The notes below the pieces were generated by a model. That model had not been told where the DNA came from. It saw only the letters and a list, made by a program, of their open reading frames with translations, and made no database searches. This document shows positions 37,608 through 42,117 of a stretch of DNA of 42,117 nt, piece after piece. The stretch is from an uncultured Dehalococcoidales bacterium (lineage in GTDB: Bacteria > Chloroflexota > Dehalococcoidia > GIF9 > UBA5629): NCBI GenBank assembly GCA_964510365.1, contig CAZEAR010000001.1, positions 1 to 42,117 on the forward strand, given 5' to 3'. The translations under genes and the position numbers were made by a program. Position 1 is the first letter of the stretch. Every line of letters begins with the position of its first letter.

Positions 37608-38849
37608 ATGGAGAAGTCTGCAAAGGGCGTGAAAACGTCCACAGGAAAAACTACACCTATTCCTGAAGCCTTGCCACCTAACAATATAATCATCCTCGGC
37701 ATGGGATCCACGCGCACAGAATGTCCCTTCGGTGAGTCCGGCGTTGAGATATGGGGAGTCAACAACGGATACCGGCAATCGAAAGATATGGGCGGGAAGA
37801 TCCATAAACTTCTGATAGCTCACCGGGGACAGGAGCACGATTATATGGAAGATCCTATCTTCGACTGGGAAGAGCTCAATAAACTGATCGATACTGGCGT
37901 TGAAATACTCACTTTATTCGATCTTCCGGAACTGAAGAGCTATAAAAAGATCGATTACCAGGCGATGGCTTCCCACTTTAACACAGATTATTTCTCGGAC
38001 TCGATCGCGTATATGCTCGCCTATGCCATATTTATCAATACCGAGAAGATCAACGATACCGGACAGCTTAAACTCATACAGCCACTCAGGATCCGGATGT
38101 ATGGCGTGGACATGCTCACAAAGGATGAATATGCCACCGAAAGAGGGGGGATCGAGTATTTTGTAGCTGTGGCGAAGACTGTCGGGATAGATTTCTGGAA
38201 TCATCCATTCTCGGCGGTTTGCAGGACCGACACCGGTATGCCTTACGGCTTCTTCCAGCTTGATAAATCGCTGATAGATCCGCACAACATTATGGAACGG
38301 CAGAAGACAGCTGCAGGCCTGAAAGAGCTCCTGGATGAAGGCGCGATCGATGAAGAGGATTACAATGAAATGATAGCCGGCTTGCTGAAACTTGAAACCG
38401 GTATCGAGCTCAAAGATGCCACTATGAACGATTTCGAACTGATGATGGCATGGCGATCGGATCCGGATATCTATCAGGGGTTTTACCAGCAGAATCAACC
38501 ACTCACCTATGAAGAACATTCCCAGTGGTTGCAATCCCGGCGCAACTGGTACCAGTACATCATATGGTACAAAGGTCGCCGGATCGGCGTTGTTTCCGTT
38601 GGACAGCTGGATCACTGGAACCCCGAGATCGGCTTTTATATCGGTGAAAAATCCCTGTGGGACCAGGGAATAGGTACCAACGCCGTCAAAGCTATCATGG
38701 ATCAGCTGAAGAGGGAAGGGAAGGAATATTGCCATACAACGGTTTTGAAGAGTAATGAACGCTCCATAAATCTTCTGAAAAAACTGGGATTCCGGCGCGG
38801 ATCCGAAGCGCGTCCCAGCGAGGTATGGATGTGGAAAAAGCTGTCTTAA
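37608..38849 (+). CDS. Two-domain protein: an N-terminal sialyltransferase/Maf(DUF115)-like candidate glycosyltransferase domain (37608-38423) fused to a C-terminal PseH-like GNAT N-acetyltransferase (38424-38846)
   Basis: GNAT part: MNDFELMMAWRSDP...RRIGVVSVGQL...IGFYIGEKSLWDQGIGTNAVKAIMD...LKSNERSINLLKKLGF. N-terminal part: IIILGMGSTR...IWGVNNGY...DSIAYMLAYAIF...IRMYGVDM resembles the GNGPS...N...SG.YM...AI...GID layout of Cst-II/Maf-type enzymes (weak, by eye). Confidence 0.6.
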   Translation: MEKSAKGVKTSTGKTTPIPEALPPNNIIILGMGSTRTECPFGESGVEIWGVNNGYRQSKDMGGKIHKLLIAHRGQEHDYMEDPIFDWEELNKLIDTGVEILTLFDLPELKSYKKIDYQAMASHFNTDYFSDSIAYMLAYAIFINTEKINDTGQLKLIQPLRIRMYGVDMLTKDEYATERGGIEYFVAVAKTVGIDFWNHPFSAVCRTDTGMPYGFFQLDKSLIDPHNIMERQKTAAGLKELLDEGAIDEEDYNEMIAGLLKLETGIELKDATMNDFELMMAWRSDPDIYQGFYQQNQPLTYEEHSQWLQSRRNWYQYIIWYKGRRIGVVSVGQLDHWNPEIGFYIGEKSLWDQGIGTNAVKAIMDQLKREGKEYCHTTVLKSNERSINLLKKLGFRRGSEARPSEVWMWKKLS

Positions 38850-39652
38850 TCACCGGCGGTACCGGATCTCTGGGTCGGGAAATAGTTAAACAGCTTCTTG
38901 AGTCCGGTTGCGAATCGATCCGGATCCTTTCCAGGAATGAAGCGAACCAGGTGATCATGCAACGTGAATTCAACAGTCCTTATTTACGCTTTTTCATCGG
39001 CGATATCCGGGATAAAGATCGACTGTGGAGATCCATGAAAAATGTCGATATCGTGATCCATACCGCGGCATTGAAGCATGTACCGGTATGTGAATACAAT
39101 CCTATCGAAGCCGTGAAGACTAACATCATGGGAGCGGTAAATATTGTAGAAGCTGCCCTGGATCGCAATATTGAAAAAGTGATGGCTATATCTTCAGATA
39201 AAGCGGTAAACCCGATCAATATATACGGTGCTACAAAGTTCGCTATGGAGAAATTATTCATTGATGCGAATGTATATGGCGGTAAGTTTTCTTGTGTCAG
39301 GATGGGGAATCTGGAAGGAAGTTCAGGAAGCGTTATACCGCTCTTCAAAGAGCAAGCTGAAAATGGAGAAGTTACAATGACCGATCCGAATATGCGGCGT
39401 TTATATTTGAAAATAGATGAAGCGGCAAGGTTTATATTGAACTGCATTCGGATAATGGAAGGCGGGGAAATATTCGTGCCGGAAATGCAGGAGATACCTC
39501 TTATTGAAACAGTGGCAAATGCTATCGGTGATAAGCCGGTGACTGTAAAAATCATCGGCAAAAGAGCCGGAGAGAAGCTGTTTGAATGTCCTTTTAATGA
39601 GGATGAATTTAACAGGATAAAGCGAATCGAAGGGGGGTATATCATAAAATGA
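38825..39652 (+). CDS. pseB: UDP-N-acetylglucosamine 4,6-dehydratase (inverting), PseB/FlaA1-type
   Basis: ITGGTGSLG, RFFIGDIRD, HTAALKHVPVCEYNPIEAVKTNIMGAVN, SSDKAVNPINIYGATK, GGEIFVP and AGEKL are collinear with H. pylori FlaA1 as recalled. The product is shorter (275 aa). Confidence 0.85.
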   Translation: MDVEKAVLITGGTGSLGREIVKQLLESGCESIRILSRNEANQVIMQREFNSPYLRFFIGDIRDKDRLWRSMKNVDIVIHTAALKHVPVCEYNPIEAVKTNIMGAVNIVEAALDRNIEKVMAISSDKAVNPINIYGATKFAMEKLFIDANVYGGKFSCVRMGNLEGSSGSVIPLFKEQAENGEVTMTDPNMRRLYLKIDEAARFILNCIRIMEGGEIFVPEMQEIPLIETVANAIGDKPVTVKIIGKRAGEKLFECPFNEDEFNRIKRIEGGYIIK

Positions 39653-40835: not shown

Positions 40836-41512
40836 AAAGGGTAGCAATTATTCAGGCCAGAATGGGATCTACCCGCCTTCCGGGGAAAGCACTCCGGGAT
40901 ATCTGCGGGAAGCCTATGATCCACCGAATAATCGATCGCGTTTCACAGTCACCGATCGATGAAATAATACTGGCGACAACGAATGATCCTCGGGATGATG
41001 AACTATGTCAATATGTGGAAAAACTCGGGGTAAGATCATACCGTGGCGAAACTTTAGATCTGATGAAACGGTATTATGAAGCCGCCCTGAAAAGCAATGC
41101 AGATTTTATAACCAAGATATCCGGCGATTGTCCCTGCGTGGATCCATACCTGATCACACTTACTATGAACTGCCTGGGATTATCCCACTTCTGCTATACA
41201 GCCGGATTTCCGCTAGGCGTGAATGCTTATTCCTTCACCTTCGATCGATTGAAATGGGCTGTCGATAACCTCAAAACGCCGGCGGAAAAGGAATTTCATC
41301 ATCAATATATGAGTGCCGGCGGGTATGTAATATATTCAAAATGGGATATCCACGGTTTCAATTTCATGGTCGATACTGGCGAGGATCTGGAGTTTATTCA
41401 TAAAGCATATTCAAATCTGGGTGATTATTTCACGCATGATGATCTCGTGAAATGGGCTATGGAGCTCGCTGTCTCTGAATTCAAAGATGGAAAGCGGGTA
41501 CGGCACTTATGA
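40832..41512 (+). CDS. SpsF/PseF-type cytidylyltransferase (CMP-nonulosonic acid synthetase candidate)
   Basis: The N-terminal VAIIQARMGSTRLPGKALRDICGKPMI is the signature of the SpsF/acylneuraminate cytidylyltransferase family. Confidence 0.7.
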   Translation: MKRVAIIQARMGSTRLPGKALRDICGKPMIHRIIDRVSQSPIDEIILATTNDPRDDELCQYVEKLGVRSYRGETLDLMKRYYEAALKSNADFITKISGDCPCVDPYLITLTMNCLGLSHFCYTAGFPLGVNAYSFTFDRLKWAVDNLKTPAEKEFHHQYMSAGGYVIYSKWDIHGFNFMVDTGEDLEFIHKAYSNLGDYFTHDDLVKWAMELAVSEFKDGKRVRHL

Positions 41513-42117
41513 CATGGGATGAATTCAACGACAATTACGGTACGATTTTCAGCAGTACGAAGTGGCTGGATCTAATCGATCAGGAATCGAAAACATTTGT
41601 CCTGAATAAAGGGGATGAACCGATAGCTGGGCTGGTACGTTTCGGGACTCCGATTGTCAAATTTACACTTTACCATGGAGTTATATTGAAAGATCCGAAA
41701 TATGAATATCCTGCCATGAAACATTTTGCTGAATTCAGCGGACTCTACCTTATGAATCATTACTCGATAAAAGATATCCGTCCTTTCATGTGGAAGGGAT
41801 ATCGCCCTGTTGTCCGCTATACTTACCTTGTTAAAAAACTGGATCCAGACAAGGATACAAGGAATCAAATCCGGAAGGCCGAAAGGAACGGGCTGGAAGT
41901 AAAAGAGGGTACTATCGAGCAATTCTTCAATCTTTACCAGGAAACATTCCAGCGTAAAGGCATGGATCTTCCGGCGGATCTGAAATGGTTTCAGAGATTT
42001 GATCAGGTAATTAAACCGAAGATATTGATCATTGAAGGCCTGGCAGCGGCTATATTCATGTCGGACCGGCACCGGGATTATTATATCTTCGGCGCATCTT
42101 CCCGAGAAGGTCAAAGC
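41509..42117 (+). CDS. 5' part of the junction-spanning FemAB/BioF2-like (GNAT-fold) transferase (continues at 56..196 on the circle; about 250 aa in total)
   Basis: ATGA coupling to the previous gene. It has 203 sense codons running to the window end (MTWDEFNDNYGTIFSSTKWLDLIDQES...AAIFMSDRHRDYYIFGASSREGQS), and the ...YYIFGAS motif is typical of the FemAB-like family. The ORF track shows only an antisense ORF here. Confidence 0.6.
   Translation, partial: MTWDEFNDNYGTIFSSTKWLDLIDQESKTFVLNKGDEPIAGLVRFGTPIVKFTLYHGVILKDPKYEYPAMKHFAEFSGLYLMNHYSIKDIRPFMWKGYRPVVRYTYLVKKLDPDKDTRNQIRKAERNGLEVKEGTIEQFFNLYQETFQRKGMDLPADLKWFQRFDQVIKPKILIIEGLAAAIFMSDRHRDYYIFGASSREGQS
42063..42117. repeat. Terminal direct repeat, copy 2 (identical to 1..55)
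   Basis: Exact 55/55 identity with the window start. Confidence 0.95.

Follow-up and report, generated by a model that had tools for sequence, protein, structure and literature searches.

A candidate nonulosonic-acid-type sugar cassette inside the structural gene block of a 42-kb tailed phage

Why would a small tailed phage carry, among the genes for its own particle, what looks like a bacterial pathway for sialic-acid-like sugars? Nonulosonic acids are bacterial surface sugars of flagella, capsules, and lipopolysaccharide (LPS), and recognition by phages, predators, and immune systems depends in part on them. The question is raised by contig CAZEAR010000001.1 of GenBank assembly GCA_964510365.1, deposited under an uncultured Dehalococcoidales bacterium and analyzed here over its full length of 42,117 nucleotides (the window). 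Judged by gene content, the whole window is a tailed-phage genome, and a second copy of this genome is present in a Logan assembly contig from run SRR14802574. Nine co-oriented genes, running from position 37608 across the contig junction to 2508, form a cassette of ~6.9 kb, or ~16% of the genome. An earlier note on this DNA had read the locus as a phage-encoded pseudaminic-acid (Pse)-type pathway wedged between head and tail genes, and family matches together with gene context bear out a phage-encoded pathway of nonulosonic-acid type inside the structural block. The explanation that we consider rather probable, if far from secure, is a late-expressed, translationally coupled nine-gene operon that would make a cytidine monophosphate (CMP)-activated, Pse-type 5,7-diamino-tetradeoxy-nonulosonic acid from uridine diphosphate (UDP)-N-acetylglucosamine (UDP-GlcNAc), most likely for virion decoration. 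We hold the synthesis of a CMP-activated, Pse-type nonulosonate by the cassette with moderate confidence, and its use on the virion with less.

The cassette spans the junction because the contig is circular: window positions 1-55 and 42063-42117 are an exact direct repeat of 55 bp, which gives a true length of 42,062 bp, and the repeat is an assembly overlap of the kind typical for a k=55 assembly of a circular contig. The gene order is a fusion of an orphan domain (X) with a GNAT N-acetyltransferase domain, a PseB-like dehydratase, a short NeuB-family synthase, a HIT-family protein, a CTP_transf_3 cytidylyltransferase, a FemAB-like protein, a Gfo/Idh/MocA oxidoreductase, a methyltransferase-like protein, and a DegT aminotransferase (Table 1). 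The open reading frames (ORFs) that the earlier note had named lie where it placed them and match their families far beyond chance in Pfam and NCBIfam; the GNAT, described there as a separate gene at 38424-38846, is actually the C-terminal domain of the longer X-GNAT ORF. All four ATGA overlaps between start and stop codons (39649, 40350, 40832, and 41509) were verified. Scans for promoters and terminators returned a number of sites below that of shuffled sequence, with none at the borders of the cassette, a result compatible with read-through from the head genes. The G+C content of the cassette genes is 0.34-0.48, against 0.447 for the genome and 0.32-0.51 for the other genes, so that the cassette regions once described as far more A+T-rich represent a modest dip. 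The lowest G+C of the genome belongs to the RepO gene (17423-18100; 0.32) and lies below that of every cassette gene.

Enzyme families were scored with Pfam, NCBIfam (bits compared with the equivalog cut-off), PHROG, and sequence searches of the Protein Data Bank (PDB). The dehydratase reached 319 bits with the PseB model TIGR03589 (cut-off 407.75), compared with 209 bits for FnlA and 71 for LegB. Its best match among solved structures was Helicobacter pylori FlaA1/PseB (2GN4; 252 bits, with residues 5-274 aligned), which ranked ahead of the Bacillus CapD/Pen-type enzyme, FnlA, CapE, and the retaining enzyme PglF. The catalytic SxDKA and YGATK motifs align with those of H. pylori FlaA1, in agreement with the PseB-type dehydratase with FlaA1 motifs proposed earlier. 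The protein ends at position 279 of the 324-position profile, ~45 C-terminal residues short, and its orthologues (270-282 aa) are truncated likewise. On these scores, the enzyme is PseB-like specifically, and it is the only one of the cassette to give strong discrimination in favor of Pse.

The remaining core enzymes were assigned at the level of families. In the synthase, the motifs EIGxN, KFQ, SDHT, and EKHF are invariant across 28 family members, as are residues E5, K33, Q35, H179, E198, H200, and D210 of the metal- and phosphoenolpyruvate (PEP)-binding motifs; its PDB matches were 6NCS and the PseI structure 8H2C. Catalytic motifs are thus retained in both the dehydratase and the synthase, a point on which the pathway assignment had been made to depend. 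For the GNAT domain, the best NCBIfam model was PseH (TIGR03585), whose cut-off is 93.1 bits and with which it scored 41.

Table 1. Features of the window discussed in the text, in the order in which they are read around the circular contig. AF2, AlphaFold2; pLDDT, predicted local distance difference test; aa, amino acids.
Feature	Coordinates	Strand	Basis
Major capsid protein	35353..36225	+	Phage_capsid_4 26.3 bits, just under threshold
Small protein, C-terminal C2H2 zinc finger	36252..36716	+	zf-C2H2 E=9e-6
272-aa all-beta virion-block protein	36716..37534	+	AF2 pLDDT 86; no Pfam or PHROG match
Orphan domain X	37608..38390	+	aa 1-~260 of 413-aa ORF; Rossmann-like alpha/beta AF2 model, pLDDT 89
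GNAT N-acetyltransferase domain, PseH-like	38409..38849	+	aa 268-400 of 413-aa ORF 37608-38849; Acetyltransf_3 E=8e-20
PseB-like UDP-GlcNAc 4,6-dehydratase (inverting type)	38825..39652	+	Polysacc_synt_2 E=1e-85
Short NeuB-family synthase, TIM barrel only	39649..40353	+	Pfam NeuB E=8.5e-30; 234 aa
HIT-family nucleotide hydrolase/transferase	40350..40835	+	Pfam HIT E=9e-11; HxHxH motif (HLHFHL); PDB HIT proteins
CTP_transf_3 cytidylyltransferase	40832..41512	+	CTP_transf_3 E=4.7e-24, N-terminal half only
FemAB-like (GNAT-superfamily) protein	41509..42117 + 56..196	+	249-aa ORF across junction, overlap removed
Short Gfo/Idh/MocA oxidoreductase, dependent on nicotinamide adenine dinucleotide	172..885	+	GFO_IDH_MocA E=1e-17; PDB matches unspecific
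Small amino-methyltransferase-like protein	861..1394	+	phrog_11619 'DNA methyltransferase' E=1e-32; DPFAG, DPPY motifs
DegT/DnrJ/EryC1 pyridoxal-phosphate-dependent sugar aminotransferase	1402..2508	+	DegT E=2.5e-68
DUF6582 small protein, downstream cassette boundary	2468..2722	+	DUF6582 28.1 bits; phrog_16160
DUF559/Vsr-like endonuclease gene	6131-6499		Inside tail-gene block
HNH endonuclease gene	16985-17422		Upstream of RepO gene

The context of the cassette was taken from at least 13 related metagenomic phage contigs (L002-L008, L023/L024, L025/L026, L029, and L034), with L025/L026 coming from Tara Oceans and L029 binned as Bathyarchaeota. Relatives in IMG/VR required an alignment-based scan; scans with single proteins (synthase, terminase) found none there. 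All 13 contigs show one order: capsid, small zinc-finger protein, the 272-aa protein in one to three paralogous copies, cassette, and the remaining virion genes, usually with an ~85-aa protein first. Their cassettes share a core of X, GNAT, PseB-like dehydratase, short NeuB, cytidylyltransferase, and DegT. The minimal cassettes, from Tara, consist of these six core genes, that is, five Pse steps plus X, with a small methylase and WbqC added, and L034 holds an orthologue of every cassette gene of the window, including HIT (E=4e-44). Sequence identity between relatives is 46-68% for the cassette enzymes, 35-41% for the capsids, and 31-47% for the 272-aa proteins. Enzymes more conserved than the capsid, kept in the same slot, make the cassette an old and strongly constrained part of the lineage, and this speaks against the horizontal acquisition that had been proposed for it.

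Several relatives carry additional genes. These variable extras include PAPS-reductase-like proteins, an ATP-grasp protein with PIG-L, WbqC, and a GT2 glycosyltransferase. The ATP-grasp protein fits nonulosonic-acid chemistry, as do the second NeuB, the PP-loop protein, and the putative GlmS described next. L002 (4937-9153) and L006 (4997-8861) each encode a second, full-length NeuB (355-360 aa) with its own cytidylyltransferase, giving two NeuB-family synthases per cassette. Both segments further code for a PP-loop protein together with a PAPS-reductase-like and a small membrane protein. From its motifs alone, the PP-loop protein, which also occurs in L005, is read as a putative PseA/WbpG-type N-acetyl-sugar amidotransferase. 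A full-length protein of ~510 aa in the cassettes of L003 (1275-2831) and L004 (7789-9318) is likewise read as a putative GlmS, suggesting that the phage would also raise the supply of hexosamine.

Members of the short synthase family are numerous, measure 205-245 aa, and in many cases lie on contigs of 38-47 kb. A scan that covered 185,579 reference genomes gave just three matches, two in Terriglobia metagenome-assembled genomes (MAGs) and one on a mis-binned phage contig. The Terriglobia copies (L027, 9318-10762; L028), the only cellular ones found, encode a 264-aa NeuB without a SAF domain that is 43-44% identical to the phage family and adjoins a GT2 gene downstream of rpoA-rplQ, an ordinary chromosomal context. 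The short synthase family is thus almost phage-restricted. Among 50,697 GenBank phage records there was no close relative of the synthase and there were three weak NeuB-family matches, none from a cultured phage; PseB-like genes in these records are distant and lie in other gene contexts, and a DNA search of GenBank phages with the cassette gave no match. The labels of the MAGs to which such contigs were assigned (Planctomycetes, Bathyarchaeota, and Acidobacteriota) were considered as a guide to the host and set aside because they contradict each other.

The sixth core component, X, belongs to a family for which an exhaustive profile search retrieved 2970 representatives at E<=1e-3, without any annotation. 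Foldseek comparison of the X model returned thiamin pyrophosphokinase, the MptE HPPK structure 8SD5, and human ST6GALNAC2, with probabilities of 0.8-1.0 and template-modeling (TM) scores of only 0.3-0.46, and no resemblance to the GT-B fold. Among viral models, its matches were uncharacterized phage proteins, several DUF115/MptE-like proteins, and one GT29 protein. We take the MptE-like Pfam family, named after the archaeal MptE pyrophosphokinase, to be the same as DUF115 and to include the Maf flagellin glycosyltransferases. The N-terminal motif IIILGMG(S/P)TR of X resembles the GNGPS motif found in enzymes of this kind, with an hhalign probability of just 10% over 33 columns in a comparison with Cst-II. 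A cultured freshwater phage, DSL-LC06 (OR003941.1; L030/L032), with a capsid related to that of the window, encodes a 185-aa protein annotated as an alpha-2,3/8-sialyltransferase and bearing GNGPS and GFD motifs; hhalign detected no homology between X and this protein.

X occurs fused to GNAT (in the window and in P0231), to GT2 (three representatives), and to an N6_N4_Mtase domain; the fusions with either GT2 or the N6_N4 methylase comprise P0249 (L034, 8001-9506), P0321, P0327, P0335, and L033 5287-6885. Some relatives have two X paralogues. Because X is the sixth gene of the minimal cassettes and occurs either in fusion with the PseH-like domain that would yield the substrate of PseG or next to it, it may be a replacement for PseG, the UDP-sugar hydrolase. 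Alternatively, its predicted fold, similar to those of sialyltransferases and Maf, together with the GT2 fusions, suggests that X may be a nonulosonic-acid transferase, and the paralogues could take on the hydrolase and transferase roles both.

The FemAB-like protein, with 23.5 bits (E=2.9e-5), fell just short of the Pfam FemAB threshold of 24 and matched pepcterm_femAB at E=5e-4; the only PDB match of its profile was a weak one to FemX (6SNR; E=0.18), with the YY(I/L)xGASS motif aligned. For the oxidoreductase, the best NCBIfam model was UDP-GlcNAc 3-dehydrogenase, whose cut-off of 450 bits is far above the 82 scored. An enzyme of the Gfo/Idh/MocA family suggests an oxidation/reduction step such as an epimerization, or a 3-amination route together with DegT. 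The methyltransferase-like protein had no match in Pfam or NCBIfam, and small proteins of this kind may serve in N-methylation of the sugar, or they may be no more than DNA methylases.

The last option leads to a different use for the cassette, namely DNA hypermodification, in which the methyltransferase-like protein, GNAT, and X would act on bases and the phage genome would bear a sugar or an acyl group. The small methyltransferase-like gene with its DPPY motif and the fusion of X to an N6_N4_Mtase domain in L034 would suit such a role, and the Mom protein of phage Mu is a GNAT-fold enzyme that modifies DNA. Set against this, the window ORFs scanned gave no match to base-hypermodification enzymes (hydroxymethyl-pyrimidine synthase, DpdA-type transglycosylase, or DNA glycosyltransferase) and none to a DNA polymerase. 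Comparison of the window with L025 and L034 showed that their methyltransferase-like genes, considered as possible orthologues, are not orthologous, and it is in the late virion block, rather than the replication block, that the genes are found. We regard DNA hypermodification as scarcely credible.

The pathway that we favor, synthesis of a Pse-type nonulosonate, would proceed in six steps. The PseB-like enzyme, with its strong homology and retained catalytic motifs, would dehydrate and invert UDP-GlcNAc, and the DegT protein, whose family is established and whose specificity is predicted, would aminate C4. The GNAT domain would then acetylate the new amine. Removal of UDP would fall to X, the best candidate since it is fused to GNAT here and adjacent to GNAT in relatives, or else to the HIT protein as second candidate. 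The short synthase, established in its family and motifs, would condense the freed sugar with PEP, and the CTP_transf_3 enzyme would form the CMP-sugar. The FemAB-like, Gfo/Idh/MocA, and methyltransferase-like proteins probably tailor the sugar, for example by adding an N-acyl or aminoacyl group, by epimerization via a keto intermediate, or by N-methylation; the Fem-like gene, whose place is taken in L002 by an ATP-grasp gene, suggests that the substituent is an aminoacyl group or some other unusual N-acyl group. Finally, the sugar would be used to decorate a virion protein, for which the X family, with its paralogues and GT2 fusions, may supply the transferase.

A number of results weigh against this scheme or limit how specific it can be. 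No cassette enzyme reached an NCBIfam equivalog cut-off. The synthase scored nearly equally with PseI (109 bits; cut-off 340) and NeuB (107 bits), the position equivalent to E134 varies within the short family, and the SAF domain is absent; in Neisseria meningitidis NeuB, this domain contributes an active-site arginine, R314; ~30% of the nonulosonic-acid synthases in UniProt are without it, and SAF-less NeuB homologues occur in environmental bacteria (PMC8208679). The aminotransferase does not discriminate between PseC (172 bits) and LegC (166 bits; both cut-offs ~420), and in the PDB its best match was perosamine synthase (142 bits), with H. pylori PseC at 94. KdsB-type models fit the cytidylyltransferase best (70 bits), and over its N-terminal half only; PseF reached 33 bits against a cut-off of 206. 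Neither the cassette nor the other window ORFs scanned gave a match to PseG or the GT-B family, or a recognized glycosyltransferase. X itself had no sequence match in Pfam (with all 49 members, and hence none to the DUF115 family PF01973), NCBIfam, or the PDB, by phmmer or by profile, and its fold matches, with TM-scores so low and no support at the level of sequence, count on the same side. L007, alone among the relatives, lacks the PseB-like and GNAT genes while keeping the synthase, X, cytidylyltransferase, Fem, oxidoreductase, and DegT. Finally, oxidoreductase and DegT genes that lie next to each other could encode a 3-dehydrogenase/3-aminotransferase pair, and a glycan on a virion protein is a prediction from gene position.

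The earlier statement that five of the six Pse steps are recognizable accordingly holds for candidates at the family level, and the scores do not single out PseC, PseI, or PseF. With no equivalog score and no PseG, the term Pse-type rests mainly on the dehydratase, and the honest label is a pathway of the 5,7-diamino-nonulosonate type whose first step is Pse-type, as opposed to a demonstrated CMP-Pse pathway.

These same results invite the proposal that no nonulosonic acid is made at all. The PseB-like, DegT, GNAT, and oxidoreductase proteins would instead produce a nucleotide-linked diamino or 6-deoxy-L-hexosamine, such as a 2,4-diacetamido-trideoxyhexose or a 2,3-diacetamido sugar, and the NeuB-like and cytidylyltransferase proteins would act on an octulosonate or another keto-acid. 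To the scores below cut-off, the missing SAF domain, the KdsB-like cytidylyltransferase, and the loss of the dehydratase in L007 can be added that the best family of the oxidoreductase is a UDP-GlcNAc 3-dehydrogenase, that its gene adjoins DegT in relatives, and that a PseB/FnlA-like dehydratase of Megavirus leads to N-acetyl-L-rhamnosamine or N-acetyl-L-quinovosamine for the virion (PMC9614988). Searches of profiles and structures, named earlier as the place where another 6-deoxy-hexosamine route might show itself, placed the dehydratase with PseB over FnlA and LegB and the aminotransferase, among solved structures, nearest to perosamine synthase. In 12 of the 13 relatives, though, a dehydratase, an aminotransferase, an acetyltransferase, a NeuB-type synthase, and a CMP-transferase occur together, which is the signature of 5,7-diamino nonulosonates. 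The invariant catalytic and metal-binding motifs of NeuB, as well as the full-length NeuB and putative PseA-like amidotransferases added by relatives, point the same way, and no FnlB/FnlC-type reductase or epimerase was found. We therefore consider a pathway without a nonulosonic acid distinctly improbable.

If a nonulosonate is made, where is it used? The virion is the most likely destination because the operon lies between capsid and tail genes across the whole phage clade; it is from this position in the structural block of all relatives that glycosylation of the virion is predicted. The capsid protein is 26-29% identical, over 96% of its length, to annotated capsids of Pelagibacter phages HTVC111P, 112P, 026P, and 202P and of Phage DSL-LC06. 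The last of these phages carries several glycosyltransferase genes, a KpsC-like gene, and methyltransferases. The model of the 272-aa protein immediately upstream of the cassette shows weak and partial fold matches to the N-terminal particle-binding domains of tailspikes and to the base of the phi29 head fibre, and relatives such as L002 and L025 encode the one to three paralogous copies mentioned above; it might be a head-fibre protein or one of decoration-like type. As a duplicated and presumably surface-exposed virion protein that adjoins the cassette, it is also a plausible acceptor of the glycan. The statement that the cassette sits between the last head gene and the first tail genes is borne out on the upstream side by the capsid gene; the genes from 2468 onward belong to the virion block, with a role that is unproven, and 'last head gene' is a reasonable but unproven label for the 272-aa protein. 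On the downstream side, an 82-87-aa protein follows DegT in L002, L023/24, and L025/26, and no sequence similarity to the DUF6582 protein at the same place in the window was detected.

The same CMP-sugar might instead be put on the host, on flagellin, S-layer, capsule, or LPS, to block superinfection, to keep progeny from sticking to debris, or as lysogenic conversion. The EpaA/EpaB enzymes of an Acinetobacter baumannii prophage, which tailor a nonulosonic acid and thereby alter the host capsule, offer a precedent (PMC12053666). Use of host transferases would also accord with the lack of a recognized glycosyltransferase among the window ORFs scanned, and the lambdoid replication module (RepO, DnaB, and RusA) is compatible with a temperate lifestyle. 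Yet neither an integrase nor a repressor was identified in the window. Moreover, in every relative the cassette lies in the late structural block and has no detectable boundaries, an odd site for a conversion gene that would act early or in lysogens, and none of the three matches in the reference genomes is a prophage of such a type. Use on the host is, in our view, unlikely, while deserving to be taken seriously. Returning to decoration of the virion, we put forward tentatively, and regard as doubtful in its full extent, a picture in which a widespread clade of uncultured phages from water and sediment coats its capsid, or the all-beta protein upstream, with a Pse-type sugar made wholly by a streamlined pathway of its own, X being a new enzyme family that would replace PseG, serve as the transferase, or, by way of its paralogues, do both.

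How does the cassette compare with known systems? With the Campylobacter jejuni and H. pylori pathway (PseB, PseC, PseH, PseG, PseI, and PseF), it shares enzyme families for five of six steps. It differs in lacking the GT-B enzyme PseG, in having all its enzymes below equivalog thresholds, in its shortened dehydratase, synthase (without SAF), and oxidoreductase, in the addition of HIT, Fem-like, Gfo/Idh/MocA, and methyltransferase-like proteins and a GNAT-fused orphan domain, and in being carried by a phage inside a block of structural genes. Glycosylation of mycobacteriophage capsids and tails, the subject of work by Freeman et al. in 2023, reportedly involves transferases rather than a sugar pathway. 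Giant viruses (Mimivirus and Megavirus) have nucleotide-sugar pathways of their own that are used on particles; that of Megavirus opens with a PseB/FnlA-like UDP-GlcNAc dehydratase, and CroV has a predicted pathway for 3-deoxy-D-manno-octulosonic acid (Kdo) with a PEP-condensing synthase and a CMP-transferase (PMC9614988). The sugars treated in this review are Kdo and 6-deoxy-amino sugars, with no mention of a nonulosonic acid (PMC9614988). In contrast to both groups, the present phage is small, at 42 kb, spends ~16% of its genome on the pathway, and has no recognized transferase. The A. baumannii EpaA/EpaB enzymes are likewise phage-encoded, act on a Pse-type sugar, and include a CTP_transf_3 domain, but they are two tailoring enzymes that epimerize Pse from the host K locus in lysogenic conversion, lie outside the virion module, and come without synthase, dehydratase, or aminotransferase, so that no de novo pathway is present (PMC12053666). 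The SAF-less NeuB homologues of environmental bacteria have the same TIM-barrel domain without the C-terminal SAF, whereas the phage synthases are shorter and form a well-conserved group of their own (PMC8208679).

The earlier note knew of no phage with a near-complete CMP-Pse pathway, and we likewise found none in deposited phage genomes or in the literature searched, which was mostly open-access and makes for weak evidence. Within these collections and this literature, no phage has been described whose structural module holds a de novo pathway to a nonulosonic acid. The chemistry is familiar; what is unfamiliar is its carrier, its position in the genome, the streamlining of its enzymes, and the presence of an orphan component.

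The rest of the window is that of a tailed phage with a large terminase, a 1115-aa internal-virion or polyvalent protein, and the replication set named above; a scan of the window for tRNAs found none. The zinc finger of the small protein between the capsid and 272-aa genes is of eukaryote style, and homologues occupy the same position in L005 (6555-6860), L007 (7463-7756), L029, and L034 (6782-7126). Both endonuclease genes (Table 1) were probably inserted as mobile nucleases. A single block, at 20774-23255, is on the minus strand; it shows reversed GC and AT skew, holds small ORFs without family matches, and is presumably an early or regulatory region.

For the biology of these phages, a genome of 42 kb with about one-sixth given over to such a cassette, under constraint stronger than that on the capsid, suggests an important and undescribed role of sialic-acid-like glycans in the phage life cycle, where the sugar might serve particle stability, masking, or adhesion. 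The cassette offers a compact set of minimized enzymes for Pse-type sugars, and X, with ~3000 representatives, is an unannotated family with a testable function. The short synthase family, in turn, is usable as a marker by which these phages may be recognized in metagenomes.

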